Assembly (NCBI GenBank): GCA_045601965.1
Contig: JAZSAR010000216.1
Span: 1-32,010, forward strand
Length of the DNA: 32,010 bases
Direction: 5' to 3'
DNA from: Clostridia bacterium
GTDB taxonomy: Bacteria > Bacillota > Clostridia > CAKSNL01 > HGM11501
Positions 2,513 through 32,010 of this stretch are shown piece by piece (the stretch's first letter is position 1; the number at the start of each line of letters is the position of its first letter). The notes under the pieces were generated by a model, which saw only the letters and a program-made list of their open reading frames with translations, was not told the origin of the DNA and searched no databases. The position numbers and the translations under genes were made by a program.

Positions 2513-2521
2513 AAATCACGC

Positions 2522-2553: not shown

Positions 2554-2561
2554 ATGCATAG

Positions 2562-2593
2562 AAAAAGTCCCCGAGTTTCCTCGGGGACTTTTT
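2562..2593 (-). terminator. rho-independent terminator of the giant minus-strand gene (palindromic, could act in both directions)
   Basis: An 8-bp GC-rich stem, GTCCCCGA (2567..2574) with TCGGGGAC (2581..2588), is flanked by A and T runs. It sits immediately after the TAA at 2596..2598. Confidence 0.75.
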
Positions 2594-2595
2594 AA

Positions 2596-14495: not shown

Positions 14496-14530
14496 AAAAA
14501 GGATGCTTGCATATGCAAGCATCCTTTTTT
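14495..14530. terminator. bidirectional rho-independent terminator shared by the convergent genes
   Basis: A perfect 24-bp palindrome, GGATGCTTGCAT/ATGCAAGCATCC (14501..14524), is flanked by an A run and a T run. Confidence 0.8.
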
Positions 14531-17012
14531 ACTTCGTTATTGTAACTGTCTGTGCCTCTCCGTTCCAGGAAACGTTATAGCCCAAAATTTCCGATACGAA
14601 TCTTACGGGTATAAAGGTACGGTTTTCCGATATCACCGGGGGATTTAAGAGAGTATACATCATCTTTCCCTTAGGGTAGCGTGTATCAGACACCCACACG
14701 ATATTGTTCCATATCTGAAGCTCGATTGTCATAACCTCGGTTTTAAGGGTGATTTTCTCCTTTGCACCGTCCCAGGCGATTTCTGCGCCCATTTCCTCAA
14801 CCAATCCTCTTAAGGGGATTAATGTTGAGCCGTTTACGATGAAGGGCGCAACGTCCAAAACCTTTTCGCTTTCGGTCTTCTCCTTACCCTTTACAGCCTT
14901 TATGGTTTTATCGCCGATTTTAAGGGTATAGGTTTCGCTTGCTTCTTCCGTTCTTTCCTTTCGTGCCGTTCCCGACTCAAAGAAGGAAATGTCCGTTGCA
15001 GAAACTCTGCCTGCATTATATTCCACAATTTCGATGTCAAAATACTTAACCTCGATTTCCTCGTCAAACACAACTACCTTTTCAGAAATATCGTCAGCAA
15101 AGGTGACTTCCTTTTCAGAAAATTCAAGACCATCAACTGACCAGCGCAAGATTGCCTTGTACCATAAGCCGTGTTTATCCTCCGACCGTCTCGGAAGATA
15201 ATGGAATTCCTTAATCTTATATACCTCGCGGAACTCAACCTCGATGGTTACGGGGCGTGTGCCTGTGGTTTCCGTCTGCCATACGGTATCCGACCTTCCG
15301 TCAAAGGCTCTGTTTATAGTGTTATTGTTCCACACAGGCTCTGTGCAGTAGCCCGTCGTCTCCTCCGTCGGAATCTGATAGAGTCTGTGAAGCACCTCAT
15401 AGTCCTGATATGCGGAAAGTGCCACGGTTTCAAGGTCGTCCCTTCCCTTTACGGCACTAAACTCCGCAAAGCTTCCTATGTTACCGTTTCCTCCCTTTAT
15501 TATAAGGCGTATTCTTTTAGCCTCGATATTTCCCACAAGGCGGAAATTTCTTATTGCACCGAATGCCGCCGTCTGCGAAAAGGCGATGGACTCGTTTTCA
15601 AGTATAGTGTAAAATGCGCCGTCATCCGAGCCTGACGCCTGAAGGTCAAAAAGCTTTACGTCGCCGGAGTGGGAATCGGTTCTCGGCAAAATTACAAATT
15701 CCGAAATTTTTGTAAGCTCGGGAAGTGTGAAGTCAATGGTATAAGGCGGCTTCTGAAGATTTTTCGCCTTGCCGTCTTCTACCTCATAGTAGGAATGCCA
15801 GATGGTCTTCTGTTTTCCGTCAATTAAGTTTTTCGCAGGTGCACCCTTAAATTCCGAGTCCGCAGTAGCCTTCCAGCCTGCCTTCGGCACTTCGTTTTCA
15901 ACTGTGAAGTCGGAGGCGGGCTCTGCCGGTTTTTCCTCCTTTGGCTCGTCCTTTGCAGATTCGCCTTTTTCGCTTCCTTTAATAAACTCAAGCTCACCGC
16001 AGGTTGCATAGCCTGTTCCGTAGGAATCGGTTATTTCAATTTTTACGCCGAGAAGCTCCATATCGCCCCAGGAGAGTGTCTGTGCTGCGTGGCGCATAGC
16101 ATCTGACGAAAGCTTGTATTTAAATATTTCCTTATATTCTTCTCCGTCGGTTGTTCCGTAAACGGTCATCGCCCTGACTGTTCCCGATTCAGAGTCGCTT
16201 CGGGGTGTGTAGATAAGTCCCGACACGGTTAACGGGCTTACGAAGTTTACGGTGATATAGTGGGGCCACTTTTCAACATCCGTAAGCTTTCCGTCTACCA
16301 CACCGTAGCGGGTATGCCAGAAGGTAGAAGGATTTCCGTCAAATATTTTCTTTATTGTTCCACCAAGGTCGGAAGAAGTTTCAACCAGCCAACTTGAATC
16401 ATAGGTGATTTTTTCATATGGAGCTTCTTCTTCCTTTTTGCCGTCAGCGGTAATTGTACCGGGAGTTACAACGGCGTTTTCAGCCTTTGCCTCTCCCCCT
16501 GTTAAAAACTGAAGCTCACCGCAGGAGGCATAGCCCGAGCCGTAGGAATTGGTTACTTCAATTTTTATGGCGCTCATTTCCTTATTGCCCCAGGAAATGG
16601 TTTTGGAATCGAAACGGCCGGCATCGCCTGAAAGCTTATATTCCGCAATTTTTGTAAAGGTTTCCCCGTCGGTGGATGAGTATACATTCATCGCCCTTAC
16701 GGTTCCCGAATCAGAATCGCTTCGGGGGGTGTAGATAAGTCCCGACACGGTTAACGGGCTTATAAAGTTTACGGTTATGTAGTGAGGCCATTTTTCAACA
16801 TCCGTAAGCTTTCCGTCAACCACACCATAGCGGGTGTGCCAGAAGGTTGATGCATTACCGTCAAATATCTTATTTATTGTTCCGCCAATGTCGGAGGTGG
16901 TTTCAACAAGCCAGGAAGAATCATAGGGGATTTCTGTTTCCGCCGCAGAGACGGAAACGAAAAGGGATAAAGTCATCAATAAGCATAATGTAAGTGCAAA
17001 TATTTTTTTCAT
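14529..17012 (-). CDS. secreted protein with four F5/8 type C (discoidin, CBM32-like) modules and a C-terminal Cu-amine-oxidase-N-like domain (827 aa)
   Basis: RBS AAAGGAGGCGG and signal peptide MKKIFALTLCLLMTLSLFVSVSA-AE. The pattern FDG...T.WH(T/S).Y ... G..Y.PR.D ... S.DG..(F/Y) ... E(L/F).F occurs four times. The C-terminus (PFIVNGSTLIPLRGLVEEMGAEIAWDG...TFIPVRFVSEILGYNVSWNG) fits the Cu_amine_oxidN1-type stalk domain common in Firmicutes wall proteins. Confidence 0.9.
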   Translation of the reverse strand: MKKIFALTLCLLMTLSLFVSVSAAETEIPYDSSWLVETTSDIGGTINKIFDGNASTFWHTRYGVVDGKLTDVEKWPHYITVNFISPLTVSGLIYTPRSDSDSGTVRAMNVYSSTDGETFTKIAEYKLSGDAGRFDSKTISWGNKEMSAIKIEVTNSYGSGYASCGELQFLTGGEAKAENAVVTPGTITADGKKEEEAPYEKITYDSSWLVETSSDLGGTIKKIFDGNPSTFWHTRYGVVDGKLTDVEKWPHYITVNFVSPLTVSGLIYTPRSDSESGTVRAMTVYGTTDGEEYKEIFKYKLSSDAMRHAAQTLSWGDMELLGVKIEITDSYGTGYATCGELEFIKGSEKGESAKDEPKEEKPAEPASDFTVENEVPKAGWKATADSEFKGAPAKNLIDGKQKTIWHSYYEVEDGKAKNLQKPPYTIDFTLPELTKISEFVILPRTDSHSGDVKLFDLQASGSDDGAFYTILENESIAFSQTAAFGAIRNFRLVGNIEAKRIRLIIKGGNGNIGSFAEFSAVKGRDDLETVALSAYQDYEVLHRLYQIPTEETTGYCTEPVWNNNTINRAFDGRSDTVWQTETTGTRPVTIEVEFREVYKIKEFHYLPRRSEDKHGLWYKAILRWSVDGLEFSEKEVTFADDISEKVVVFDEEIEVKYFDIEIVEYNAGRVSATDISFFESGTARKERTEEASETYTLKIGDKTIKAVKGKEKTESEKVLDVAPFIVNGSTLIPLRGLVEEMGAEIAWDGAKEKITLKTEVMTIELQIWNNIVWVSDTRYPKGKMMYTLLNPPVISENRTFIPVRFVSEILGYNVSWNGEAQTVTITK
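15975..16925 (-). repeat. intragenic tandem duplication with a 522-bp (174-codon) period, covering discoidin modules 1 and 2 of the 827-aa protein
   Basis: For example, agataagtcccgacacggttaacgggctta at 16211 recurs at 16733. The protein copies are YDSSWLVETTSDIGGTINKIFDGNASTFWHTRYGVVDGKLTDVEKWPHYITVNF.. and YDSSWLVETSSDLGGTIKKIFDGNPSTFWHTRYGVVDGKLTDVEKWPHYITVNF.. Confidence 0.85.
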
Positions 17013-17025
17013 TTTGCCGCCTCCT

Positions 17026-19767
17026 TTAATTAATGTGTGAAATCACGGCGTTTACTGTGTCAAGGGGTGCGCTTCCTTTGGTGCAGAGGGTGTATACGCC
17101 GCCTCCGAGTGCTTTTACTTCGTAGCCGTAGCACTCTGAAATAAATGTAAGAGGAATGTAGATAATTCCGTCAACTGCCGTGATGGGAGCAGAAAGCTTG
17201 ACGGGCGCTCCGTCCGCCTTTGCATCAAGTGTGCCGATAGTGGTATATGTCCACTTATAGTTTACAACTTCTGTAAGTTCGTCGTTCATTTCAAAGTGGT
17301 AGGTACGAAGCACGTTGTAGAAGGAATTATAATCCGTCTTTGTTCTGCCGTAGCCCATAACCTCATTGAAGGTGTCCTCGGGGATATAGAGTGTGCCGTT
17401 TAATTCGATTGCACGGACATTTCTGTTTTTCTCATATACGGGCATTTTTCCGCCTGCAACTATCATTTCTTCCGCGCCCGCCTTAAGTATTGCGGTGTCG
17501 GAAAGTGTCGCGCGCTCGGATGCGGTAAGTGCGGTCTGTGCTATTTCGGTAAAGAGATAGTTAAAGCGACCGTAGGGTGCAACGGATCCGTCAGAATAGA
17601 AGTTCATAAAGTCATCCTTGCCTGAAACGGAATCCGTCCACTTTAATTCAAGGTCAACTGTTCCCGTTTCGCCGATTAAGCTTCGTGAAAGCTTAAGCAT
17701 CATACTGTTTCCTGCGATTTTATATTCGGCATCGCCGATTTTTCCCATTGCCCAGAATCTTTCCGCATTTTTGTAAACTATGCCCTTTTCGATTAAGAAG
17801 TCATAGCCTTCCCAGCCCGTGTTATACATTCTGTCGGTGTTTATATAAAGGTTTAAGAAATTGCTGTCGTGCTCCTTAATCTCCTCTTCGCAATTTACAA
17901 GGAAATAAAGATTTTCAGAGTCAAATGTAACTTTTGCGCTCTTTATGGCGTTGTTTACCGTTGTCTTATAAACGTGGGGCTCAAAGTCTGTTCCCGCCTT
18001 TGCATAGCCTATGCTGTTACGCTCATAGGACTGGTCTGCATTGAGGAACTCAGGGCCTACACCGTTCCACTGCGAAAGGTCGCCCGCAATATCAATGGTT
18101 TTCGCTCCGCTTGCCGTAGGTACGGGGCGTACACCTTTATACTTTCTGATAAAGTCAACCATCAGGTTGTAATAGTCGTCCTTTAATGCTCCTCTTGAAG
18201 GCTCAAAGTCACGGCTGTTTTCATCGTCGAAGGTATCAACAAAGGCGTTGGGATTTCCGTACCAGTCTTCAAAACGGATTGCGGTCTGCTCGTTCCATCC
18301 GTCGATGTAGATAAATTCGGGCTCTGCACTGAGGGCTAATGCTGCCTGCTCACGGAAGAAGTATGCCTTTCTTGCACCCTCTTTGGTGTAGTCCTCGCCG
18401 AATACCTTGGAGAAGCCTCTTCCCTTTGCATAGTCGTTGGATGCCGCACCTCCAAGTCCCATTGCCGCATTGGTAAGGGTATTTATGGAACAGCCCACAG
18501 CCATAAATTCAGGTCTTCCCGTCTCGTCGGGGTTACGGAGCTTCTGGGGGAAGTGTTCAAGCCAGAACCACTCGTTGGGTTTAACCTCGCTGTCTCTCGT
18601 TCCGCCGTAACGGAAGGTGAAAAAGTCGTGAATTTCGTCTACTAAGGCAAGCTGTGCCGTGTCCTTGGCATTTGCCTGTGCAACGGCATATTCCTTACGG
18701 GTATTTGCAAAAATAAGGGGCTTTCCGTCAAGGTAGTACCATATATCGGAATAGTCGTTTTCATAGAAACAGCTCATATAAATGGATGCAGGCTGTGTGA
18801 AGCTGTACTGATTGGGCATTACGATTGCGCCAAGCACGGAAATTTTAGGAACGTTGAGCCCCGTCGATTTCGCATCGCGGAAGGCTTCTGCCACAACCTT
18901 AAGAGAGCTTACAAAGTTATAGCCGTTATTTGTATAGTCAAAGAATATTACGTCAACGCCCGCATGGGAAAGCATTTCGGCGTGCTTTCTGTAAACCCAG
19001 TAGTCATAGGAATCATAAAAGCCAAGTGCCGGCTCTGACCAGTAATATATGCTGTTTAAGTCCCACGCCTTGTGGAAGTAGTCATATCTTGCTTCGGGAG
19101 AAGCTTTAATTACGTCCCCGATTACCGTCGCACGGGTTTTAGCAGTATCCGATGTAAACCAGTTCCAGTACATTATGCCCACATCACGTCCGTCGGTTTT
19201 AACGGCACCTGCTTCAGAATAGTCTGCCACCTTTCTTCCATAGGAATCCGTTGCCGCCCAGGTATCGGAATAAAGGTCAATGACAGCATCATCGGATACC
19301 TGAACGGATTTTGTATCACGCACATAATCTTCCTTTGAAAGAATGACCTTTTTAATATCGCTTCCGCCGCGGGATGCACCGTAGAGCGAAACGAAGTAAA
19401 GGTCGTGTTTTCCTTCCGTCGCTTTTACGGGTGCTTTGAAAAGGCCTTCTCTGTTTTCGTCCATTACAAGATAGCCTATTACATTGCCTGTGAGCGGATC
19501 GTCGGTTTTAATCATAAGAGTATCGCCGTTTGCCCCTCCGGTAACAACATTTTTCGCTTCGATTGCGATATGCTTTATCCCGGTAAGGTCCACATTCTTA
19601 AACCCGAAATAATCGTCCTTTTTTGAATACCGGAGAATTTCTCCGTTTATTGTTGCTCCCGACAAAATATCCGCATCCGCCGCATTAAGTGTAATTTCAC
19701 CCTCTGCAGATACAGGAATTGAAAAAATCATCAGGATTGCCAGAATAATTGCAAGTATTTTTTTCAA
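17026..19767 (-). CDS. secreted putative glycoside hydrolase (913 aa), function uncertain. It has an N-terminal CBM6/35-like module, a family-unassigned GH99/WbsX-like TIM-barrel-type core, a beta-sandwich and a C-terminal Cu-amine-oxidase-N-like domain.
   Basis: TTG start at 19765..19767 preceded by GAAAGGAAGGG. Signal peptide MKKILAIILAILMIFSIPVSA-EG. The CBM-like segment reads ..DYFGFKNVDLTG...GKHDLYFV... Core motifs are YYWSEPALGFYDSYDYWVYRKHAEMLSHAGVDVIFFDYTN and IYIDGWNEQT. The stop lies 13 nt before the next gene's ATG, indicating an operon. Confidence 0.85.
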   Translation of the reverse strand: MKKILAIILAILMIFSIPVSAEGEITLNAADADILSGATINGEILRYSKKDDYFGFKNVDLTGIKHIAIEAKNVVTGGANGDTLMIKTDDPLTGNVIGYLVMDENREGLFKAPVKATEGKHDLYFVSLYGASRGGSDIKKVILSKEDYVRDTKSVQVSDDAVIDLYSDTWAATDSYGRKVADYSEAGAVKTDGRDVGIMYWNWFTSDTAKTRATVIGDVIKASPEARYDYFHKAWDLNSIYYWSEPALGFYDSYDYWVYRKHAEMLSHAGVDVIFFDYTNNGYNFVSSLKVVAEAFRDAKSTGLNVPKISVLGAIVMPNQYSFTQPASIYMSCFYENDYSDIWYYLDGKPLIFANTRKEYAVAQANAKDTAQLALVDEIHDFFTFRYGGTRDSEVKPNEWFWLEHFPQKLRNPDETGRPEFMAVGCSINTLTNAAMGLGGAASNDYAKGRGFSKVFGEDYTKEGARKAYFFREQAALALSAEPEFIYIDGWNEQTAIRFEDWYGNPNAFVDTFDDENSRDFEPSRGALKDDYYNLMVDFIRKYKGVRPVPTASGAKTIDIAGDLSQWNGVGPEFLNADQSYERNSIGYAKAGTDFEPHVYKTTVNNAIKSAKVTFDSENLYFLVNCEEEIKEHDSNFLNLYINTDRMYNTGWEGYDFLIEKGIVYKNAERFWAMGKIGDAEYKIAGNSMMLKLSRSLIGETGTVDLELKWTDSVSGKDDFMNFYSDGSVAPYGRFNYLFTEIAQTALTASERATLSDTAILKAGAEEMIVAGGKMPVYEKNRNVRAIELNGTLYIPEDTFNEVMGYGRTKTDYNSFYNVLRTYHFEMNDELTEVVNYKWTYTTIGTLDAKADGAPVKLSAPITAVDGIIYIPLTFISECYGYEVKALGGGVYTLCTKGSAPLDTVNAVISHIN

Positions 19768-19799
19768 TGCTATTCCCTTCCTTTCAGTTTGATAATATA

Positions 19800-19828
19800 A
19801 TTATACATTATCCCGTGCTTTTTGTCTT
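19800..19828 (-). promoter_or_regulatory. candidate promoter for the 17026..19767 / 14529..17012 operon
   Basis: On the minus strand: AAGACA (19823..19828), a 17-nt spacer, then TATAAT (19800..19805). The -35 element is weak. Confidence 0.3.
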
Positions 19829-19943
19829 TATCATCAATTCCGACGTATTTATCATTTATTCCACGAAAAATTTTTCTTTTCTTTTTGGGAAAAATGTGGT
19901 ATTATATATTAATGGAAGAAATTTTGAAAGGAGAAGTGTCATT

Positions 19944-22136
19944 ATGAGCGAAGAATTAAAGGCCCGTCAGGTGGATCAGCTCATCACCGATACCTTAAGA
20001 ACAAACTATATGCCCTACGCCATGAGCGTTATTGTATCCCGTGCAATCCCCGAGATTGACGGTCTTAAGCCCTCACACAGAAAGTTACTCTACACTATGT
20101 ATAAAATGGGCTTGCTTACAGGCGTGAGAACAAAGAGCTCCAACGTTGTGGGACAGACCATGAAGTTAAACCCCCACGGCGATATGGCAATATATGATAC
20201 ATTGGTAAGACTTACAAGGGGCAATGCATCGCTTTTGTATCCCTTTGTTGATTCAAAGGGTTCCTTTGGTAAAAAGTACAGCCGTGATATGGCGTCTGCC
20301 GCAGCCCGTTATACGGAGGTTAAGCTTGCCCCCATATCAGCGGAGCTTTTTTCCGATATTGATAAAAACAACGTTGACTTTGTGGATAACTTCGATGCCA
20401 CAATGAAGGAGCCCGTTCTCCTTCCCGTTACTTTCCCGAACATACTGGCAAACCCGAATCTCGGTATTGCCGTTGGTATGGCAAGTAACATCTGCTCCTT
20501 TAACTTAAGGGAGCTTTGTGATACAACCATCGCCCTTATGAAGGATAAAAACGCCGATATTACGGAAACACTCCTTGCTCCGGATTTCCCCGGCGGCGGA
20601 CAGATACTTTATGATAAGGAGCTTTTCCGCTCCATCTACGAGACGGGACGCGGAAGCTTCAAGGTTCGCTCCAAGTGGCGTTATGATAAGAAGAATCAGT
20701 GTATCGAGGTTTATGAAATCCCCTACACCACCCAGGCAGAGCTTATCATAGAAGCAATCGCAAAGCTTGTGAAAGACGGAAAGGCAAAGGAGATATCAGA
20801 CCTTCGTGACGAAACGGACTTAAACGGTCTTAAAATTACCATTGATGTAAAGCGCGGCACAGATCCCGATAAATTAATGGCGCTTTTATTCTCCAAGACA
20901 CCCCTTGAGGACAGCTTTGGCTGTAACTTCAACATCCTTGTAAAAAACCGCCCCATGGTACTGGGTGTCCGTGCAATATTGCTTGAATGGCTCGCCTTCA
21001 GAATGGATTGCGTAAAGAGAAGAATTCTGTTTGACATTGACAAGAAAAATTCAACACTTCATCTTTTATACGGTCTCCGTAAGATTTTACTTGATCTTGA
21101 CAAGGCGATAAAAATTGTCCGTGATACGGAAAACGATGCGGATGTTGTTCCCAATTTAATGCAGGGCTTCGGCATCGACGAAACCCAGGCAAACTTTGTT
21201 GCGGAGATCAAGCTCCGTAATATGAACAAGGAATACATCTTAAAGAAAATCGCCGATGTGGATGAGCTTGAAAAGGAAATTGCCGATCTTACGGAAACAG
21301 TTAAGAGCGATGCGAAAATCAAGAAGCTTATCGCTTCTGAGCTTAAGGATGTTGCCTCAAAATACGGTGAGGAGCGAAAGAGTGAAATCATTCAGGCAGA
21401 TGATGTTCCCGTGGTTGAGGCAGCAAGCGAGGTTGAGGACTATAACTTAAAGATGTTCTTAACAAGGGACAACTACTTAAAGAAAATTACTCTCGTTTCC
21501 TTAAGAAGTGCAGCAGACCATAAGCTTAAGGACGGTGACGAAATCATTTCAGAGCAGGAATCCACCAACAGAAGTGATCTTTTACTCTTCTCGGATAAAG
21601 CTGTTGTTTACAAGATGAAGATTTCAGATCTTCCCGACTGCAAGGCAAGCTCCTTCGGTGAATACATCCCGAACTTAATTGAGCTTGACGAGGGCGAGAA
21701 GATTATAAAGATTGTGGCAACGGACAATTACGAAGGCATTATGCTCTTTGCCTTTGAAAACGGTAAGGTTGCAAAGGTGCCCTTAAAGAGCTATGAAACC
21801 AAGACCAACCGTAAGAAGCTTATAAATGCATATTCCGACGCATCCCCCATCGTGGGAATTATCTATACCCCCACCGAGACAGATGTGCTCGCTGAAACCA
21901 GCAATGCAAAGCTTCTTTGCTTTAACACCGAATCGGTTAATATGAAGACCACCCGTGATACACAGGGTGTGAAGGCACTTACACTTAAGAAGAATGCAAC
22001 ACTTAAGTCAATCTGCCTTGCATCCGAATCCAAGGTGGCAGACCCCAAAAAGTATTACACCAAAAACATCCCTGCCGCAGGCTTTTTCTTAAAGGCCTCG
22101 GACAAGGCACCCCAGATGTCGTTATTTGAAGATTAG
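19944..22136 (+). CDS. type IIA DNA topoisomerase subunit A (ParC/GyrA-like, 730 aa, short C-terminal domain)
   Basis: RBS GAAAGGAGAAG, then the ATG at 19944 (MSEELKARQV...). GyrA/ParC N-terminal motifs are present: YMPYAMSVIVSRAIPEIDGLKPSHRKLLY, NPHGDMAIYDTLVRL and the catalytic-Tyr motif AAARYTEVKL. I saw no GyrA-box-like QRRGGKG motif. The 65-codon upstream extension in the ORF track overlaps the divergent gene's start and the AT-rich promoter DNA. Confidence 0.9.
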   Translation: MSEELKARQVDQLITDTLRTNYMPYAMSVIVSRAIPEIDGLKPSHRKLLYTMYKMGLLTGVRTKSSNVVGQTMKLNPHGDMAIYDTLVRLTRGNASLLYPFVDSKGSFGKKYSRDMASAAARYTEVKLAPISAELFSDIDKNNVDFVDNFDATMKEPVLLPVTFPNILANPNLGIAVGMASNICSFNLRELCDTTIALMKDKNADITETLLAPDFPGGGQILYDKELFRSIYETGRGSFKVRSKWRYDKKNQCIEVYEIPYTTQAELIIEAIAKLVKDGKAKEISDLRDETDLNGLKITIDVKRGTDPDKLMALLFSKTPLEDSFGCNFNILVKNRPMVLGVRAILLEWLAFRMDCVKRRILFDIDKKNSTLHLLYGLRKILLDLDKAIKIVRDTENDADVVPNLMQGFGIDETQANFVAEIKLRNMNKEYILKKIADVDELEKEIADLTETVKSDAKIKKLIASELKDVASKYGEERKSEIIQADDVPVVEAASEVEDYNLKMFLTRDNYLKKITLVSLRSAADHKLKDGDEIISEQESTNRSDLLLFSDKAVVYKMKISDLPDCKASSFGEYIPNLIELDEGEKIIKIVATDNYEGIMLFAFENGKVAKVPLKSYETKTNRKKLINAYSDASPIVGIIYTPTETDVLAETSNAKLLCFNTESVNMKTTRDTQGVKALTLKKNATLKSICLASESKVADPKKYYTKNIPAAGFFLKASDKAPQMSLFED

Positions 22137-22172
22137 TAAAAAGATGTGAGCCGACGGCTCACATCTTTTTAT
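22137..22172. terminator. bidirectional rho-independent terminator between the topoisomerase gene and metH
   Basis: A 12-bp stem, AAGATGTGAGCC (22141..22152) with GGCTCACATCTT (22156..22167), is flanked by A and T runs. Confidence 0.8.
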
Positions 22173-24562: not shown

Positions 24563-24563
24563 T

Positions 24564-25463
24564 TTAATCCTCTTTTAATATCGCGGAAAGATTTTCCTGA
24601 ATTTTTGCTGCAACATAAGGCTTATTCATAGAATAAACGTGCACGTTCATAATGTTATTTGCATAAAGGTCGATTATCTGATCCGTCGCATAGGCAATTC
24701 CCGCCTGACGCATTGCATCGGGATTATGCCCGAACTTATCGACAATGCTGATAAAGCGGCGGGGCATAAACGAACCCGAAAGCTTTATGGCACGCTCCAC
24801 CTGATTTGCATTGGTTATGGGCATAATGCCCGCAATTACGGGAACGGTGATGCCCGCCTCCCTTATTTTATAAAGGAAGTTATATAAGAGATTGTTGTCA
24901 AAAAACATTTGGGTGGTTAAAAACTCAAGCCCCGCATCCACTTTTTCCTTTAAGTACTTTATGTCGTCCTTCTGATTTAAGCTTTCGGGATGCACCTCGG
25001 GATAGCAGGCACCGCCGATGCAGAAGTCGCTGCCGCATTCTTTAAGTTCGCGAACCAGATCAACGGCGTTTTTATAGTGCCAGGAGGATTTATCGCCTGC
25101 CTTAAGCTCATCCGTAAGGTCTCCCCTCAGGGCAAGTACATTTTCAATCCCCGCTTTTTTCATATCCGAAATTCTTTCGCGAACAGTTTCCTTTGTGGAT
25201 GAAACACAGGTAAGATGTGCAATCATTGACACACCGTATTTTTCCTTTATGCTTTTAGCAATATCAAGAGTATACTTGCTTGTACCGCCGCCTGCACCAT
25301 AGGTCACACTCATAAAGGAAGGGCGTAGACGGGCAATTTCCTCAGTAGCCTCTTTTACACTTTCAAATGCCGTATCGGTTTTCGGAGGGAAAACCTCGAA
25401 GGATAAGCGGGGCTTTTCACTTTTCAGTATTTCTCTAAGCTTCATATTATCAGCTCTTTTCAT
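24564..25463 (-). CDS. metF: 5,10-methylenetetrahydrofolate reductase
   Basis: MetF-family pattern: LSFEVFPPKTD..., VTYGAGG, LTC and LALRGD. The start is ambiguous: ATG at 25463 has no RBS, while ATG at 25445 (MKLREIL..) has a weak AAGAG RBS. Confidence 0.88.
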   Translation of the reverse strand: MKRADNMKLREILKSEKPRLSFEVFPPKTDTAFESVKEATEEIARLRPSFMSVTYGAGGGTSKYTLDIAKSIKEKYGVSMIAHLTCVSSTKETVRERISDMKKAGIENVLALRGDLTDELKAGDKSSWHYKNAVDLVRELKECGSDFCIGGACYPEVHPESLNQKDDIKYLKEKVDAGLEFLTTQMFFDNNLLYNFLYKIREAGITVPVIAGIMPITNANQVERAIKLSGSFMPRRFISIVDKFGHNPDAMRQAGIAYATDQIIDLYANNIMNVHVYSMNKPYVAAKIQENLSAILKED

Positions 25464-25477
25464 ATATTTTAATTTTT

Positions 25478-25506
25478 ATAATAGCATAAAAGCCTTTATT
25501 TTGCAA
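25478..25506 (-). promoter_or_regulatory. sigma-A-type promoter of metF-metH
   Basis: On the minus strand: TTGCAA (25501..25506), a 17-nt spacer, then TATTAT (25478..25483). Confidence 0.45.
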
Positions 25507-25507
25507 T

Positions 25508-25541
25508 AAAAAAATACTGCGGATAATAAATCCGCAGTATT
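25508..25541 (-). terminator. rho-independent terminator of the 25546..27093 gene
   Basis: An 11-bp stem, AATACTGCGGA (25513..25523) with TCCGCAGTATT (25531..25541), is followed on the minus strand by a T run. Confidence 0.75.
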
Positions 25542-25545
25542 AAAA

Positions 25546-27093
25546 TTATTTCTTAATAACGATTGCCTGCTCAGCCTGGTTCCATTCGCAGTTGATGCCA
25601 AGAACCTTTGTAAGGAAGATAACAGGAACTGTTGCGCTTCCGTCAGCAGCTGTATGAGTGGGCTTTGCAAGAAGAAGTCTTACGCCATTTGAAGCAAGGT
25701 AGTTTGAGTTCTTCTTGAAGTTGTATGTTACGCCGCCGTATGTAACTGTGATATCATCACCGGATTCAGCATAGGAGCCGCCGAGAGCTTCCATAGTATA
25801 CTTGAAGGGAAGCATTGTTGCACCGCCTACGATGTAGGGAGCTGTTACTGTTCCTGCTGTGCCGTTTGCATTTGCACTGGTGTTTCCGAGCTTAAGAACG
25901 ATTTTGCCGGAACCGGGAGCTGTATCAGCAGTTGTTGTTGTCTTAACTATCTGTGTCTGAACTACTGTCTCAAGGGGGCCGAAGAAATCAACCTCGGCTG
26001 CCATACAGTATCTTGAGCTTTCTTCAATGATAACTCTTACAGCCTTAACTGTTACGTTTTTACCGAAACCGAAAATTCTTTCCTTGGGATCGTTGCCGGA
26101 ATATGTATTAACAGCTGTGCAGCCTTCAACATACTTCTTACCGTCTGTGGAGTACATAACTCTTACCTTTAACCAGTAACCGCCGGTGCTGTCCTGTCTG
26201 GGAGTGTAGCTGATACCGGAGATTTCTGTCTTCTTTGTGAATGTAAAGTCAAGTGTGAAGGGAGCCTGGTCATAGCCTGTGATTGTGGAACCGGATGCTG
26301 TATACGCACTGTGCCAGTAGGTCTTTATATCACCGTCAAGCATCTTGGGAGAAGATCCGCCCTGACCGTCACTTGACGCCTTTACGGAAATACCGCTCTT
26401 GTCAATCTTATCGCCGACTTTCTGTACAGCCGTTGTCTTTGTAACGCCTGCCTGAGGTGTAGCAGGAGCAGCGGGAGTTGCAGGAGCAGCAGGAGTTGCG
26501 GGCTTTGCTGCGCCCTTCTGGTTTGAAACAGTCTTTGCTGCAGCTTCATCTGTGATTAAAGCTATTTCACCGATTTCCCATTCGCCCCAGTTATCATTGC
26601 TCTTCTGAGAAGAAAGAGAAATGTACTTGGCTGTGATTTCTTTTCCGAAATAATAATCATCAAACCAGAACTGATCGTTTGCGCTTCTTGTGTTTGCAAC
26701 ATCTGTCCAGGTTTTTCCGTCAGAAGAAATCTTTACAAGAAGAGTTTCTGCTCGTCTGTGATCCTTGCCGTTCATGTTGGGGTCAGAGTGTGTGCCCTCT
26801 GCGCCGGCAACACAGCTCTTACTCATCCACGCACGGATACCGGAGAATTTCTGCTCAGTGCCTAAATCAAACTGGATTGTACCCTTAAGCTTTGCACCGA
26901 AGTCATTTCTTGTTCCGTCAACAAGATTAGCGGTGGTGCCTGCATATGCGCCCTTTTCTCCGCCTTCATATGTAATTGTTGCGCCTGTTATCTTCTTTGC
27001 GCCCTTCATATCTTCTGTGCCGATTTCAGCAGCAAATACGGATGCGCTCATTATCATAACAAGTGCTAAAATTAATGCTAAAGTCTTTTTCAT
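25546..27093 (-). CDS. secreted protein with two discoidin modules (one A-type, one B-type), a Pro/Thr/Ala linker and a C-terminal Cu-amine-oxidase-N-like domain (515 aa)
   Basis: RBS AGGAGG and signal peptide MKKTLALILALVMIMSASVFA-AE. Module 1 reads ..QFDLGTEQKFSGIRAW...SSDGKTW...AKYISL..NDNWGEWEIGEIALI. The linker is PATPAAPATPAAPATP. Module 2 reads LDGDIKTYWHSAY...ISGISYTPRQD..STDGKKY..AAEVDFF. The C-terminus is ..APYIVGGATMLPFKYTMEALG....VPVIFLTKVLGINCEWN. Confidence 0.9.
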   Translation of the reverse strand: MKKTLALILALVMIMSASVFAAEIGTEDMKGAKKITGATITYEGGEKGAYAGTTANLVDGTRNDFGAKLKGTIQFDLGTEQKFSGIRAWMSKSCVAGAEGTHSDPNMNGKDHRRAETLLVKISSDGKTWTDVANTRSANDQFWFDDYYFGKEITAKYISLSSQKSNDNWGEWEIGEIALITDEAAAKTVSNQKGAAKPATPAAPATPAAPATPQAGVTKTTAVQKVGDKIDKSGISVKASSDGQGGSSPKMLDGDIKTYWHSAYTASGSTITGYDQAPFTLDFTFTKKTEISGISYTPRQDSTGGYWLKVRVMYSTDGKKYVEGCTAVNTYSGNDPKERIFGFGKNVTVKAVRVIIEESSRYCMAAEVDFFGPLETVVQTQIVKTTTTADTAPGSGKIVLKLGNTSANANGTAGTVTAPYIVGGATMLPFKYTMEALGGSYAESGDDITVTYGGVTYNFKKNSNYLASNGVRLLLAKPTHTAADGSATVPVIFLTKVLGINCEWNQAEQAIVIKK

Positions 27094-27129
27094 ATAAGTT
27101 TCCTCCTATTATGCATTATGGTATAGTAT

Positions 27130-27160
27130 ATTATAGCACAACAAGTCCCTTTTTCACAAT
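27130..27160 (-). promoter_or_regulatory. candidate extended -10 promoter of the 25546..27093 gene
   Basis: On the minus strand: TTGTGA (27155..27160), a 19-nt spacer, then TGcTATAAT with the -10 hexamer at 27130..27135. Confidence 0.4.
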
Positions 27161-27231
27161 CTTTTTTTCTGTTTTTTCTTCTCTTTTCCCGCTTTTCGTC
27201 ATATTGCACAAACCAAAGCCTGCTATTTTGT

Positions 27232-27267
27232 GAAAAATTACACCCGCAACAGCTGTGCGGGTGTAAT
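27232..27267 (-). terminator. rho-independent terminator of the 27274..30006 gene
   Basis: A 12-bp stem, ATTACACCCGCA (27237..27248) with TGCGGGTGTAAT (27256..27267), is followed on the minus strand by TTTTT. Confidence 0.75.
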
Positions 27268-27273
27268 TCATAC

Positions 27274-30006
27274 TTATTTTTCTATGGTAATTGTCTGTGT
27301 TGCGCCATCCCAGCCTACTGTGTATCCGAGACGCTCGGATACAAATCTTAAGGGAATGAAGGTTCTGCCGTTTTCAATTCTGGGTGCAACGGGAGAGGTA
27401 TATCTTATGCCGTTTACCCATACACGGTTATTTTCAATCTGAAATTCGATGGCTGTTCCTTCGGCTTCCACGGTGATTTTCTTGTTTTCGCCGTGCCAGG
27501 TAACTTCAGCTCCCATCTCCTCAAAGAGACCGCGAAGGGGAATCATTGTTGTTCCTTCAACAATAAAGGGCTCAACATCTATAGTCTTTACTCTGCCCTC
27601 TTCGCCCTTTGTTACCCTGATATCCTTTGAGCCTATCTGAAGAGTATAGCATTCCTTTTCCCCGGAAAGGCGGGCAAGCTGATCATTTTCGCTTTCATAA
27701 AACTGAACGTCCGCACAGGTGGCGTGGGCACTTGCCTTGCTGCCTCCGTCATTGGTTGTAACTAAGATGTCTATGCGGAAATATCTTGTGGTAATAGGCT
27801 CATAGAAGGGAATCCTCATAAAGTTGAAGGACTTATACTGGGTGGGGTTAAGAACAAAGCTATCCACAAAGTCATAATTTTCTCCGTCCGCTGATGTGCT
27901 TATTTCAAACTCAACCCAGTGTCCGCTTAAGAATCCCTGACCTCTGGGCATAAAGCCGAAGCCCGAAAGAGTGTATTCCTTTCCGAGGTCATACTCAAGA
28001 TAAGCGGGCATTACCTTTTTATTGAAGCCCTCAGTTGAGCCGTCCTCGTTTCTGTACTGAGTGTGCCATACGGAATATTCATTCCGGTCAATGGTCTTGA
28101 TTGCAGTTGAGTGCATATCGTTGGCGTTTTCAAAGGGATAGGGCTGTTCGCTACTTGCCTCTACCTTAACCTCGCTTCTGTCTATGGGAAGCATTTTATA
28201 GTCGCCGTAGTTATCTCTCATTTCCGCCACAGTTACTGTCTCTTTATAAAGAGTGGGCTTAAGCACGCGGATTTCCGATGCAACGGCATAGTTACTCATA
28301 GAGTCCACAATAACAAGCTTTATTGCCTTTGCTTTAACATTTCTGCTCATTACAAGCTCGCAGGGCGTTCTTCTCTGGTCCTTTGTTGTGGTTCCGCCGT
28401 AGGAGAAGGTGAAATCCTCAACCGCGGGATAGAAGTTTTCGCCGTCATCAGACACATATAAGCTTACGATTTTGAATATACCCGCACTGCTCTGGGATTC
28501 GTCTCTCGGGTAATATCTGATACCGGAAACCTCGGTTTCCTCCGGGAAGGTTATGATATAGTCAAAGGGGTTCATATCATGGGAAACAATTGTTCCGTTC
28601 TCAACCACATAAGCAGAATGCCAGAAGGTTTTAAGATCGCCATCCATAGCAAGCTCCGGCTTTGTCATTGCGCTGGATGCTGTTACCTTCCAGTCGGATT
28701 CGGGGGTCATTTCATCCTCTTCATACTCTGCCTTTGCCGTTTCTGTGGGCTTTGTTTCTTCCTTGGTTTCTTCCTTTTTACCGGAGGCTGATGCTCCGCC
28801 GATTCCTGTGGTTGCATCAAATTCCGTTGCGGTAAGCTTAACAGATGATACCTCGGCTGTCTTTAATTTTTCGTCACTCTTAAGGAGTGAAAGCTCTGCC
28901 ATTGTGCCGAAATCGCTGACGCCTTCGGTAATTATAAGCCTTACAGATTTCACCTTTACGTTGGAATCAAACTTAACTGTTCTTCCTGTTTCACGGTCGG
29001 AAAATGAAGGGTTGTAGGAAAGCTTTACATCACCAAGCTTTGTATAGTTTGCACCGTCAGAAGATATTTCAATCCCCATTTCCTTAACAACACCTGCGGT
29101 GCTTCCGCCAAGTCTGGGATAGTAGCGGATACCGGAAATTTCCGTTACCGAAGGAAGGGTAAGCTCGAATGTATAGGGCAGGGGGTCCTTTTCCGTAATG
29201 GTTGAGCCTTCTGCCTTATAGCCAGAATGCCAGATGGTATCAATGTTTCCGTCAATGGCGTTTTCTGCCTTCTGTGCTATGCTGGAAGCAGAGACTGTCC
29301 AGCCGGATTTATCGGTAATTTCGTCCTTTACCTTACCGCTGTCGGCACCTGCACCGCCAACTGCCGCAGAGCCTGTTTCCTTTGCGATATTCTGTGTTTC
29401 AACTCCGTTCTCCGTTGCGGGGATTACGGTTTTTGCAAGCTTAACAGATTTCACATCTGCGCTTGAAAGACTATCCTTCTTTTTAAGAAGGGAAAGCTCT
29501 GCCATTGTACCGAAATCGCTGTAACCCTTTATTACGTCAAACTTAAGGGACTTTATCTTTACATTTTCCGTAAAGTCAACGGTTTTTCCTCCCTCACGGT
29601 CGGAATATGCGGGATTGTACTGAAACTTAACCTGTCCCATTTCGGTGTAGTTTTCACCGTCTTCGGAAATGTATACTATGATATCGTAAAACGTACCTGC
29701 CACACTTCCGCCAAGACGGGGGTAATAACGAAAGCCCGAAACCTCGGTTACATCGGGAAGTGTAAGGGTAACTGTATAGGGCATGGGGTCCTTTGCCGTA
29801 ACCTGACCGCCCTCTGCGGTGTAGCCCGAATGCCAGATGGTGTCTAGATTGCCGTCGATGGCGTTTTCGATTTTCTGAATCTGGCTTGTTGCCTTGATAA
29901 TCCATCCTGTTTTTTCGATTTCGTCATCCGACGCAAAGGCTGTAAGGGCGAAAACAGATGAAAGAATTATTGATAATGCGAATATTAAAGATAATATTTT
30001 TTTCAT
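27274..30006 (-). CDS. secreted protein with four discoidin modules and a C-terminal Cu-amine-oxidase-N-like domain (910 aa); paralog of 14529..17012
   Basis: RBS AAGGAGGCGG and signal peptide MKKILSLIFALSIILSSVFALTAFA-SD. The pattern (I/M)DG(N/D)..T.WHS.Y ... SG(F/I)RYYPR ... S.DG.N(Y/F) ... E(L/I)..L occurs four times. The C-terminus (PFIVEGTTMIPLRGLFEEMGAEVTWHG...TFIPLRFVSERLGYTVGWDG) aligns by eye with the 827-aa protein. Confidence 0.9.
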   Translation of the reverse strand: MKKILSLIFALSIILSSVFALTAFASDDEIEKTGWIIKATSQIQKIENAIDGNLDTIWHSGYTAEGGQVTAKDPMPYTVTLTLPDVTEVSGFRYYPRLGGSVAGTFYDIIVYISEDGENYTEMGQVKFQYNPAYSDREGGKTVDFTENVKIKSLKFDVIKGYSDFGTMAELSLLKKKDSLSSADVKSVKLAKTVIPATENGVETQNIAKETGSAAVGGAGADSGKVKDEITDKSGWTVSASSIAQKAENAIDGNIDTIWHSGYKAEGSTITEKDPLPYTFELTLPSVTEISGIRYYPRLGGSTAGVVKEMGIEISSDGANYTKLGDVKLSYNPSFSDRETGRTVKFDSNVKVKSVRLIITEGVSDFGTMAELSLLKSDEKLKTAEVSSVKLTATEFDATTGIGGASASGKKEETKEETKPTETAKAEYEEDEMTPESDWKVTASSAMTKPELAMDGDLKTFWHSAYVVENGTIVSHDMNPFDYIITFPEETEVSGIRYYPRDESQSSAGIFKIVSLYVSDDGENFYPAVEDFTFSYGGTTTKDQRRTPCELVMSRNVKAKAIKLVIVDSMSNYAVASEIRVLKPTLYKETVTVAEMRDNYGDYKMLPIDRSEVKVEASSEQPYPFENANDMHSTAIKTIDRNEYSVWHTQYRNEDGSTEGFNKKVMPAYLEYDLGKEYTLSGFGFMPRGQGFLSGHWVEFEISTSADGENYDFVDSFVLNPTQYKSFNFMRIPFYEPITTRYFRIDILVTTNDGGSKASAHATCADVQFYESENDQLARLSGEKECYTLQIGSKDIRVTKGEEGRVKTIDVEPFIVEGTTMIPLRGLFEEMGAEVTWHGENKKITVEAEGTAIEFQIENNRVWVNGIRYTSPVAPRIENGRTFIPLRFVSERLGYTVGWDGATQTITIEK

Positions 30007-30019
30007 TTTTTCCGCCTCC

Positions 30020-32010
30020 TTATATAAGCTCTGCTGCGCGAAGCGCCGCCTCGGTATTTATTTCTTCTCCGAAAGCATAAATTCCGTTTCCTAAGCTCTT
30101 GACGTCATAGCCAAGTGTGTCAAAAAGGAAGGTTACGGGAACGTATGCGATTCCGTCAACATCAACTACGGGCTTTGAAAGTGTTATGTCAACGCCGTCC
30201 GCCACACCGGAAAGGGTGTTAAGTGTTGTGTAGAAAAGCCCTTCCTTTGAATCAATTTTAAAGAAGCTTCTGTAGCTCTCGTAAATTGTTCTTGTGGTGC
30301 CGTAGCCTATTGCATCCTTAAGCATTGTATAGGGAACATAAGCCGTTCCGTTAATTTCTCTTACTCCGTAAGCGTTGTTTGCTTCAAAGGCATCCATAAC
30401 GCCGCCACGGATAACCGCCTTGGCGGAGCCAACCTTTACAACGGTTGTGTTTTTAAGGAGCGCTCTGTCAGCATCCGTTACACATCTTTCGGGAATTTCG
30501 GTATATACATAATTAAATCTGCTTGCGGGAGCGCATATGCCTGTAACATAGAAATTCATAATGTCGGAATCGTCTGAATTGTCCGCCCACTTAAATTCGA
30601 TGTCGGCGATGTCACCCATTCCGATTAAGCTCTTCTGTAACTTTATCTGAAGCTGTTTTCCACTGAGCACCTGCTCTGCCTTTCCTATTGCGTTCCATGT
30701 GCCGTTAAAGTTATAAACATCGGTGTTTGCCACTTTTATGTCATAGCCTTCCCAGCCGGTTGCGTGATTTCTGTCCGCGTCAATGTAAAGTGCCATCCAG
30801 TTATTGCCCGAAGGTGCGGTAATATCCTTTTCGCAGGTAGCTGAAAACCAGATAAATTCATCGTTTCTTGCAACCTTGCTTGTTTTTATATTGTTTCTTG
30901 CAGTTTTATTTACATAGTGATTTTTTCCGTAGCCTGCCGCATCACGGTCATATGCTCCGCGTACATTGTAGAATGTGGGTGCCACATTATCCCAGGATGG
31001 GGGATTTGCCATATCAATGGTGGTTTTTTCGCTTGCAGTAGGTGCGGGACGAACGCCCTTCCACTTACGGATGGCGTCAACCATCAGCATAAAGCCGTTG
31101 TCACGGTTTCCGCCCTTTGCAAGGGCAAGGTCACGGGTGTTAACCTGGTCAAAATGGTCGATAAAGGAATTTTTGAATTTACCTGAGTAATTTTCCTGTC
31201 TTCCTACGGTCCATTCGTTCCAGCTTGAAATAAGCATAATTCTTGCATCGGTTTCAAGGGCGCCTGATACCTGTTCTTCAAAGAAGTAGTTATATTTATA
31301 AGCATCGGCGTCCCATATATGGCCGAAGGTTTCTGTGTAGTTTTTGCCTCTTGCGGTTTTATAACCCATGGGAACAAGCTGTTCCGTTTCGATGGACTTG
31401 TTGCATCCGCCTGCCACGGTTACGGTTTCGGCATTTCCAGAAGAGTCCACACCATAGGTCTTCATAGGATATTTTTCAATGATAGACCATTTGTCGGTTT
31501 TATCGGAAAGGGTATCGTTCCAGTCTCCCTCAATTCCGCGGAATGTGAAGAAATCAAGAATTTCTTCGGTTAATTTAACATCCTCGGGATCATTTTCGTT
31601 AAGATAACGCTCCATTGATTCCTGATGTACCATCAAAAGGGGCTTACCCTCGTGATAATACCACAAATCCTCGTAATAGCCGGGCTTGTAGAAGGTGCGG
31701 TACATATAGAAAAGCATAGTTTTTGCGTTTTCCGTGGGGTATGCCATATTACCTGCCAGAGTGAATTTGGGCACATCCACGCCGTCCGCCTTAGCATCAC
31801 GGAATGCCTGACAGAATGCTTCCATATTGCGACGGAAAACCGCAATTCCGTTGGTGTCGTCAAAGAATAAGAAGTCTACCCCTGCCTCACTTAAAAGCTC
31901 CGCATCCTTTCTGTATACCCAGTAGTCGTTGCCCGCATAAAATCCGTATAAGGGCTCGTCCCAGAAATACTCGGTCTTACCCTTGGGCCACGCGGGATGA
32001 AGATATCCGT
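30020..32010 (-). CDS. putative glycoside hydrolase, paralog of 17026..19767; the 5' end is off the right edge of the window
   Basis: The frame stays open beyond the ATG in the ORF track. My hand translation of 31826..32010 gives GYLHPAWPKGKTEYFWDEPLYGFYAGNDYWVYRKDAELLSEAGVDFLFFDDTNGIAVFRRN-M.., which is collinear with YYWSEPALGFYDSYDYWVYRKHAEMLSHAGVDVIFFDYTNN of the paralog. It also shares SSWNEWT, VDAIRKWKGVRPAP, TGWEGYD and the C-terminal Cu-amine-oxidase-N-like domain. The stop lies 13 nt before the next ATG. Confidence 0.88.
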   Translation of the reverse strand, partial: GYLHPAWPKGKTEYFWDEPLYGFYAGNDYWVYRKDAELLSEAGVDFLFFDDTNGIAVFRRNMEAFCQAFRDAKADGVDVPKFTLAGNMAYPTENAKTMLFYMYRTFYKPGYYEDLWYYHEGKPLLMVHQESMERYLNENDPEDVKLTEEILDFFTFRGIEGDWNDTLSDKTDKWSIIEKYPMKTYGVDSSGNAETVTVAGGCNKSIETEQLVPMGYKTARGKNYTETFGHIWDADAYKYNYFFEEQVSGALETDARIMLISSWNEWTVGRQENYSGKFKNSFIDHFDQVNTRDLALAKGGNRDNGFMLMVDAIRKWKGVRPAPTASEKTTIDMANPPSWDNVAPTFYNVRGAYDRDAAGYGKNHYVNKTARNNIKTSKVARNDEFIWFSATCEKDITAPSGNNWMALYIDADRNHATGWEGYDIKVANTDVYNFNGTWNAIGKAEQVLSGKQLQIKLQKSLIGMGDIADIEFKWADNSDDSDIMNFYVTGICAPASRFNYVYTEIPERCVTDADRALLKNTTVVKVGSAKAVIRGGVMDAFEANNAYGVREINGTAYVPYTMLKDAIGYGTTRTIYESYRSFFKIDSKEGLFYTTLNTLSGVADGVDITLSKPVVDVDGIAYVPVTFLFDTLGYDVKSLGNGIYAFGEEINTEAALRAAELI

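Follow-up and report, generated by a model that had tools for sequence, protein, structure and literature searches.

Two gene pairs encoding a glycosidase-like protein and a discoidin protein

The DNA analyzed here comprises positions 1 to 32,010 of contig JAZSAR010000216.1 from a Clostridia bacterium (assembly GCA_045601965.1), and this whole stretch of 32,010 nucleotides (nt) is referred to as the window. It carries two gene pairs on the minus strand. Each pair consists of a gene for a large glycosidase-like protein, designated A, and directly downstream a gene for a discoidin protein, designated B (A1-B1 and A2-B2; Table 1). A sequence-only reading of the window had described the pairs as alike in strand, gene order, domain layout, and a 13-nt junction containing a common sequence, and as alignable yet clearly diverged proteins. 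The open reading frames (ORFs) were confirmed at the coordinates that it gave, the common layout was seen in both pairs, and all of the peptides that it quoted were present. Alignment of A1 with A2 covers 673 residues at 38% identity (E = 1e-146), and that of B1 with B2 extends over the full length at 29% identity (E = 8e-91). The A2 reading frame is open up to base 32008, where translation reaches the window edge; a 601-amino-acid (aa) ORF called from an internal ATG at 31825 was therefore rejected as a window-edge artifact.

The sequence AAGGAGGCGG is present in both 13-nt junctions. The A1-B1 junction reads TAA-AGGAGGCGGCAAA-ATG, and its Shine-Dalgarno sequence abuts the A1 stop codon. The A2-B2 junction reads TAAGGAGGCGGAAAAA-ATG, and here the final two bases of the A2 stop codon are also part of the Shine-Dalgarno sequence.

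A1 consists of a Sec signal peptide, a family 6 carbohydrate-binding module (CBM6), a (beta/alpha)8 catalytic barrel, a beta-sandwich, and a Cu_amine_oxidN1 tail. The CBM6 assignment is based on a family profile that matches the PDB sequence 1gmm (E = 1.2e-4) and on a Foldseek match of residues ~25-145 to 2v4v (E = 7e-7, TM score 0.78). The sequence-only reading had placed a carbohydrate-binding module in each A protein. This holds for the A1 N terminus, and the A2 N terminus lies beyond the window; P0268, an 883-aa full-length A2 ortholog with 91% identity, has a Pfam CBM_6 domain at 7e-7. The tail that it had also placed in each A protein scores above the Pfam Cu_amine_oxidN1 cut-off of 24.2 bits in A1 (1.6e-7, 31.7 bits) and just below it in A2 (22.3 bits), and the A2 tail aligns with the A1 tail. 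Sec signal peptides are visible in A1, B1, and B2.

Table 1 Features of the two gene pairs and their surroundings. Positions are those of the window unless another locus is named; a dot marks a feature without strand.
Feature	Position	Strand	Description
A1 gene	17026..19767	-	913 aa; TTG start; GGAAGGG Shine-Dalgarno
B1 gene	14529..17012	-	827 aa; directly after A1
A2 gene	30020..>32010	-	C-terminal 662 aa (barrel, beta-sandwich, tail); 5' end beyond window
B2 gene	27274..30006	-	910 aa; signal peptide, four discoidin modules, Cu_amine_oxidN1 tail
A1-B1 junction	17013..17025	-	13 nt; TAA stop, then AGGAGG Shine-Dalgarno, then ATG
A2-B2 junction	30007..30019	-	13 nt; TAAGGAGGCGG...ATG
A1 CBM6 module	19333..19701	-	~aa 23-145; profile and Foldseek
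A1 catalytic (beta/alpha)8 barrel	18133..19290	-	~aa 160-545; Foldseek and profile match to GH99
A1 beta-sandwich	17533..18132	-	~aa 546-745; secondary structure of the AF2 model
A1 C-terminal Cu_amine_oxidN1 ("stalk") tail	17029..17532	-	two sub-repeats; Pfam and model
B1 discoidin modules	~16497..16940, 15978..16421, 15453..15920, 14973..15380	-	F5/8 type C, CBM32-like
B1 Cu_amine_oxidN1 tail	14532..14864	-	Pfam 2.3e-28
Orphan B-like lectin	25546..27093	-	515 aa; signal peptide, two discoidin modules, Pro/Ala/Thr linker, Cu_amine_oxidN1 tail
Promoter-like site AAGACA-17-TATAAT	19800..19828	-	upstream of A1; consensus match, putative
Hairpin, perfect 16-bp palindrome with A6/T6 flanks	14495..14530	.	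between convergent GH3 gene and B1
Terminator-like 13-bp hairpin	27236..27268	-	directly after B2 stop; parts A2-B2 from next gene
Promoter-like site of 515-aa lectin gene, extended -10	27130..27159	-	consensus match
Terminator hairpin of 515-aa lectin gene	25513..25541	-
AP_endonuc_2 genes beside A-family members	L002/L003 7003..7866; L084 3438..4166; L085 14408..15322

The A core belongs with the GH99/GH71 clan

When A1 and A2 were searched with Pfam, the tail was the sole domain found and nothing was reported on the core. The ~580-aa core had no match in Pfam, NCBIfam, or PDB sequences, and seven distant multi-domain relatives likewise had no Pfam domain on their A cores. An AlphaFold model of A1 built with 43 homologs had a pLDDT of 92.7 and a pTM of 0.92. 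Foldseek comparison of the modeled barrel with the PDB ranked glycoside hydrolase (GH) family 99 at the top (4ad2_B, E = 7.2e-6, probability 1.0). The GH99 structures aligned over ~390-440 columns with 13-17% identity and target TM scores of 0.5-0.59. Foldseek also matched A1 to GH71 (8yfh, 1.7e-5; 9fnh, 5e-5), with TM scores of only 0.36-0.43 and ~10% identity; these alignments of ~570-600 columns spanned both the barrel and the beta-sandwich. The beta-sandwich contains DR[NM]xxTGW[EN]G, the most conserved motif of the A family, and is present in all of the ~600-aa stand-alone relatives of A.

Profile searches led to the same clan. A profile of close A homologs detected only CBM6 in the PDB, and GH99 was reached by the broader profile alone: the broad-family profile matched BtGH99 (4acy) along the whole barrel with E = 8.7e-5, the sole significant PDB match for the core. 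With the E limit raised to 10, the Pfam GH99 model (PF16317) still failed to match the core of A1 or A2, and the Pfam GH71 model gave no match. The distant member P0353 exceeds the Pfam GH99 gathering score (35.8 versus 33 bits) over the N-terminal half of the model. Because P0353 alone passes Pfam GH99 and the family profile reaches BtGH99, the relationship is best described as clan-level homology, not GH99 membership. The profiles and the model thus assign the A core to the GH99/GH71 clan and to neither of the two families. It is probably an undescribed glycoside hydrolase family, judging from sequence and predicted structure. An exhaustive search found relatives of the core in 2111 cluster representatives (50% identity) at E up to 1e-3 and in 698 at E up to 1e-30, with architectures from ~580 to 2790 aa. 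Literature searches on GH99-like families and on PF07833 (Cu_amine_oxidN1) turned up no description of the A family or of its pairing with B. The CBM6 module and a GH99/GH71-clan barrel with invariant acidic residues bear out the earlier proposal that the first gene of each pair is carbohydrate-related.

Candidate catalytic residues of A

GH99 and GH71 have in common a [D/E]-x-x-E dyad that defines the active site (PMC12394665, PMC11025385), and in GH99 this dyad is E-W-[H/G]-E with two catalytic Glu (PMC11025385). In the profile alignment, the W-N-E of the A family (WNEW) aligns to FNEWHEG of BtGH99. Glu493 of A1 (E493) is the counterpart of the first Glu of the EW[H/G]E dyad and is kept without exception (86 of 86 sequences). 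At the third residue beyond E493, all 86 have A, T, or V and never D or E, giving the family motif N-E-[WQ]-x-[ATV]. The GH99/GH71 mechanism is not transferable to A because the second Glu of the dyad is missing from every sequence.

Several other residues of the A1 barrel are conserved. D272, D277, N280, W491-N492-E493, D511, D520, and D530 are invariant, as is E420 in the broad family alignment. Across phyla, at ~30% overall identity, D255, D272, D277, E420, D511, D520, and D530 are invariant or nearly so. Judged by these alignments, A very probably acts on carbohydrates as an active enzyme whose second catalytic residue differs from that of GH99 and GH71.

Protein B and the shared tail

Each B protein has a signal peptide, four discoidin modules, and a Cu_amine_oxidN1 tail, as had been described from the sequence, and Pfam detects the modules and the tail in both. 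F5_F8_type_C (PF00754, cut-off 28.2 bits) matches four stretches of B1 (4.6e-53, 179 bits) and four of B2 (5.6e-58, 195 bits), and the B1 modules match the CBM32 region of the SpGH101 model. The tail scores are 98.7 bits in B1, 120.3 bits in B2 (4.6e-35), and 50.6 bits in a 515-aa protein encoded between the two pairs, all against the cut-off of 24.2. This 515-aa protein is a B-like lectin without an A partner and is conserved in contig L001, a syntenic contig from a related genome.

Two functions have been assigned to domains of the tail type. In cell-wall hydrolases, PF07833 is predicted to bind the wall (PMC4137172; bioRxiv 10.64898/2026.09.23.753664), and a PF07833-type module is a proven dimerization module in the superoxide dismutase (SOD) of Paenibacillus lautus (PMC10432803, PDB 8imd), a structure that the B1 tail matches weakly. 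The shared tail may be a cell-wall anchor instead of, or besides, a module for A-B interaction. That the B tail is highly conserved, and that the orphan lectin carries it too, favors a common ligand for the tails, such as the wall. We rank wall anchoring slightly above pair-specific heterodimerization, and the two are not exclusive.

Two other discoidin proteins are encoded in the window. An ORF of 3167 aa (2596..12099, minus strand) contains at least 11 F5/8 type C modules, two CBM_X2 domains, Listeria-Bacteroides repeats, and three C-terminal SLH domains, and it has a 3480-aa counterpart in L001. Its SLH domains indicate that the organism uses SLH anchoring besides the PF07833 tail. A secreted protein of 217 aa (12340..12993, minus strand) has one discoidin module and no tail; it is maybe a stand-alone lectin or a remnant.

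A and B are paired and diverge together across related genomes

Related loci were collected by scanning one genome per species, which gave 454 loci. The best 80 matches (75 distinct loci) were analyzed, and these come from only about ten metagenome-assembled genomes (MAGs) of uncultured Clostridia, sampled in the goat colon, the Hadza human gut, and similar sources. Conservation of the gene neighborhood had been set beforehand as a test of the pairing. The result favors the pairing: of the 76 A genes that are followed by 400 nt or more of sequence, 75 have a discoidin ORF downstream, and the Cu_amine_oxidN1 tail is encoded by 67 of the 68 B genes that are complete. The number of discoidin modules in B ranges from 1 to 6 and is most commonly 4. 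The junction design TAA(A)GGAGG, 6-9 nt, ATGAAAAA is kept in at least 51 of 58 pairs elsewhere, with gaps mostly of 11-15 nt, and it recurs although the proteins are only 40-60% identical. Negative A-B gaps (-4, -41, and others) were rejected as longest-ORF artifacts; these junctions show the normal TAAGGAGG...ATG. Independent look-ups found three pairs within 19 kb on one contig and further pairs in Hadza and other assemblies. Discoidin modules are fused to the A core in a single chain in P0131, P0193, P0216, and P0245. Such fusions are a classical Rosetta-stone indication, at the level of sequence, that two functions work together.

The divergence of A follows that of B. Distances between A catalytic parts correlate with those between B bodies with a Mantel r of 0.84 overall, compared to 0.82 for two parts of A itself. 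Within single genomes the Mantel r for A catalytic part and B body lies between 0.55 and 0.61 (p ≤ 0.015). When genomes are compared with each other, 39 of 47 reciprocal-best matches of A have partner B genes that are reciprocal-best matches as well. For the A and B tails the partial Mantel r is 0.33 (p < 0.0005), and for CBM6 and the B tail it is 0.05 (not significant). The parts differ in mean identity: 0.58 for the B tail, 0.50 for the A catalytic part, 0.44 for the A tail, 0.34 for CBM6, and 0.32 for the B body. By these sequence comparisons, the enzyme-lectin pair behaves as an obligate, co-diverging unit with a conserved junction.

The statement of the sequence-only reading that the cassette occurs twice is right for the window and greatly understates the family, as related genomes hold many more copies. 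The genome closest to the window (RGIG2055, 89% identity) has at least 17 distinct A ORFs, and three other MAGs have at least 20, 18, and 16; these counts are lower bounds and include end-truncated and split copies. The highest identity within a genome is 82%. A1 and A2 each belong to a separate series of orthologs in other MAGs with 82-91% identity, compared to the 38% between A1 and A2. The co-divergence of A and B, the ceiling on within-genome identity, and the separate ortholog series show that the repertoire is old and stably inherited and does not consist of recent repeats. The earlier view of an old duplication kept as a pair is thereby upheld. With its two cassettes, the window samples a repertoire of ~20 pairs that belongs to an uncultured lineage of gut Clostridia.

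In three loci (L011 1586..4369, L019 5992..8772, L046 5950..8733) A is split into two consecutive ORFs that both match the core. These are either frameshifted or pseudogene copies or MAG assembly errors.

Putative expression signals around the pairs

Each pair shows the sequence features of a translationally coupled operon: the genes are on the same strand and separated by a short gap, a Shine-Dalgarno sequence lies at the stop codon, and terminator-like hairpins follow B. The A1 promoter-like site is located in a 179-nt divergent intergenic region shared with a topoisomerase gene. The palindrome at the end of B1 overlaps the last codon and the stop codon of B1 and is likely, from its sequence, to terminate transcription in both directions, of B1 and of the convergent GH3 gene. 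Inside the A and B coding sequences there are only weak (9 of 12) matches to the promoter consensus and weak hairpins. The promoter and terminator matches are consistent with an A-B operon and are no proof of it. Rfam detected nothing in the whole window at gathering thresholds.

Genes around A-family members

The neighbors of the pairs in related genomes comprise 130 non-redundant proteins. AraC-type regulators are the commonest family (13 of 130), followed by sugar-metabolism enzymes such as AP_endonuc_2, GH42, GH78, and glucuronyl esterase. Other neighbors include GH20, GH16, GH35, GH39, and BNR_2, with GH3 in the window itself. Some distant relatives of A are located in catabolic clusters with GH106, GH43, GH141, and TonB-receptor genes.

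AP_endonuc_2, a xylose-isomerase-like TIM-barrel family, lies beside A-family members in unrelated lineages and accounts for three of the 130 neighbors (Table 1). Its recurrence may be a hint about the sugar that is released.

Stand-alone A relatives of ~600 aa are found next to exopolysaccharide or capsule genes in L081 (Spirosoma oryzae, 1972..3855) and L082 (10001..11857). The genes near them encode Bac_transf and Wzi (Spirosoma), GT87, and a pectate-lyase-like protein. Part of the wider A family may process bacterial exopolysaccharides. An exopolysaccharide-locus context was rejected as a general rule, since three further contexts are catabolic or mixed.

A model for the enzyme-lectin pairs and its alternatives

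We favor, with moderate confidence, the reading that each pair is a two-gene operon for a cell-surface unit of glycan capture and cleavage. A and B would be made together from one transcript, and both proteins would be retained at the cell surface by their tails, which would bind the wall or associate with each other. The multivalent, non-catalytic lectin B would hold a polymeric glycan, and enzyme A, probably an endo-acting hydrolase, would cut it. E493 would be one catalytic carboxylate, and the second acid would come from D272, D277, E420, D511, or D520 and not from the GH99/GH71 position three residues past E493. The carbohydrate-binding parts are the most diverged and AraC regulators are often adjacent, which suggests that each pair serves a different glycan. 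A more far-reaching version is put forward only tentatively. It combines a new GH99/GH71-clan family, which would use another second catalytic residue and possibly another mechanism or linkage specificity, with a dedicated lectin acting in trans. The pair would have been multiplied into ~20 or more specificities, as a Gram-positive functional counterpart to the paralogous Sus-like sets of Bacteroidota, and the tails would dock the proteins on the wall or to each other.

Several observations weigh against a capture-and-cleavage unit. The position of the second GH99 carboxylate is never acidic in the A family, the structural likeness to GH99 is moderate (TM scores of 0.5-0.59 at 13-17% identity), and the database names of A relatives are all "hypothetical" or "stalk domain-containing." A may have a non-hydrolytic role. 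A nutritional role would be conjectural, since no transporter family is among the 25 commonest families of the 130 neighbors, and neither cassette of the window has an AraC regulator beside it.

The function of the tails admits a different account, in which they are a pair-specific heterodimerization device that forms a stoichiometric A-B complex, soluble or at the surface, and are not wall anchors. We regard this as possible, at rather less than even chances. The homodimerization of the P. lautus SOD through a PF07833-type module (PMC10432803) argues for it, as do the co-variation of A and B tails beyond overall divergence (the partial Mantel r of 0.33) and the correlation between the tails within genomes (r of 0.60-0.62). 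However, the residual correlation of the A tail with the B body is 0.25, which shows that the tail signal is not tail-specific. The SOD uses a half-domain, whereas the tails of A and B hold both sub-repeats and are self-contained. The B tail is also the most conserved part of either protein, which fits one common ligand better than ~20 orthogonal partner specificities, and the 515-aa orphan lectin has the same tail without an A partner. A different substrate is the subject of another alternative: the pairs could act on bacterial surface polymers, either the organism's own wall, as autolysins or in remodeling, or the capsules and exopolysaccharides of other microbes, rather than on glycans from the diet or the host. 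PF07833 is characteristic of peptidoglycan hydrolases (PMC4137172; bioRxiv 10.64898/2026.09.23.753664), GH99 and GH71 are reported sequence neighbors of GH25 lysozymes (PMC11025385), and the stand-alone relatives beside exopolysaccharide and capsule genes point the same way. Bacterial surface polysaccharides are enormously diverse, which would account for a large set of paralogs. This alternative is unlikely in our estimate. Wall remodeling would need far fewer than the 17-20 or more diverged copies, each of which has CBM6 and 2-6 discoidin modules; the neighborhoods contain GH20, GH35, GH42, GH78, GH16, GH39, and glucuronyl esterase genes, as is usual where host or plant glycans are degraded; and other distant relatives are in the catabolic clusters described above.

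The loss of the second GH99/GH71 catalytic Glu from all A members raises the idea that the core is no longer a hydrolase. The barrel would then be a binding domain, and the pairs would be diversified surface adhesins or lectins for particles, mucus, or cells. The extreme lectin content of the region, exemplified by the 3167-aa protein with its discoidin modules and SLH domains, fits this idea. It is nevertheless improbable, because D272, D277, N280, E420, N492-E493, D511, and D520 are invariant across phyla, a pattern typical of an active site and not of a degenerate binding domain. The catalytic part is also more conserved than the binding modules, and stand-alone ~600-aa relatives sit in glycan-degradation clusters. 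The notion that the likeness of the cassettes reflects chance, an assembly artifact, or a recent repeat has next to nothing in its favor and is refuted by the alignments, which reach E values of 1e-146 for A1 and A2 and 8e-91 for B1 and B2 with identities of only 38% and 29%. An independent 202-kb contig with 89% identity shows the same arrangement, and A1 and A2 have separate ortholog series.

Comparison with known systems

The capture-and-cleavage model can be set beside characterized enzymes and loci. The best structural match of the A barrel is GH99, which contains endo-alpha-1,2-mannosidases and mannanases (BtGH99, 4acy; BxGH99, 4ad1; human MANEA). The NEW motif with the first catalytic Glu aligns exactly. 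A differs in adding CBM6, an obligatory beta-sandwich, and the PF07833 tail, and the invariant D272 and D277 of A are G and T in BtGH99 in the profile alignment. The 1,2-anhydro-sugar mechanism of GH99 is not to be assumed for A. In GH71 a barrel is tightly packed against a C-terminal beta-sandwich, and this arrangement is conserved throughout the family (PMC12394665). The two-domain layout of the GH71 alpha-1,3-glucanases, or mutanases (AnGH71C, 9fnh; Agn1, 8yfh), recalls the A model. The dyad is D-Y-G-E in these enzymes, whereas A has E-[WQ]-x-[ATV]. The PF07833 domain of A and B is the same domain that is found at a terminus of other secreted proteins, namely Bacillota cell-wall hydrolases and the P. 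lautus SOD.

NagH, NagJ, and NanJ of Clostridium perfringens and SpGH101 are secreted Firmicute enzymes that join a catalytic domain to several CBM32 modules and act on host glycans. Some A relatives resemble them as in-cis discoidin fusions. The A-B pairs differ in placing the lectin modules on a separate polypeptide encoded downstream, in belonging to another catalytic family, and in occurring ~20-fold per genome. In Bacteroidota, polysaccharide utilization loci (PULs) encode SusD and surface glycan-binding proteins (SGBPs) next to a surface endo-glycanase and are multiplied as paralogous sets. The scale of these sets has been documented (PMC6499787). Like them, the A-B pairs combine a binder and a cleaver side by side, are predicted to be surface-displayed, exist in many diverged sets, and often have a regulator adjacent. 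Unlike them, the pairs show no homology to the Bacteroidota components and have no TonB-dependent transporter and no consistently linked ABC transporter. The host is presumably Gram-positive, and the likeness to Bacteroidota PULs is a functional analogy only. Of the components of a Gram-positive polysaccharide utilization locus, namely a regulator, a transporter, and glycoside hydrolases, AraC and glycoside hydrolase genes are found near the pairs in related genomes, and no transporter is among the 25 commonest neighbor families.

If the assignments are correct, a large uncharacterized family of carbohydrate-active enzymes is currently missed by the automatic annotation of gut metagenomes. The family would also be a natural experiment in GH99/GH71 active-site evolution, in which the first carboxylate was kept and the second was lost or moved. 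Glycan foraging in these Gram-positive gut bacteria would be unlike both cellulosomes and Bacteroidota PULs, being organized as many small self-contained operons that each supply an enzyme and a trans-acting lectin. Should the specificities differ, the ~20 diverged pairs per genome would be a ready panel of matched lectins and enzymes for glycan analysis.

Other genes in the window

The region between the two cassettes contains a topoisomerase IV/gyrase A-like gene, MetH and MTHFR genes (identified by Pfam on the syntenic contig), and the gene for the 515-aa lectin. The topoisomerase and metF-metH genes had been placed there by the sequence-only reading and all were found; the B-like lectin gene in the same interval had been missed. 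The topoisomerase IV/gyrase A-like ORF (19749..22136, plus strand) was called from a TTG that overlaps the A1 start. The gene probably starts at the ATG at 19947 (MSEELK...; 730 aa in L001), which leaves the 179-nt divergent promoter region. The MTHFR-MetH operon (22169..25545, minus strand) has no riboswitch or T-box upstream that is recognizable by Rfam.

The gene convergent with B1 (13344..14495, plus strand) encodes a protein that consists of a GH3 N-terminal domain only (NagZ-like, Pfam 1.2e-75), with a lipoprotein-type signal LLLPGC. The otherwise syntenic L001 lacks this gene here and has a GIY-YIG gene in its place.

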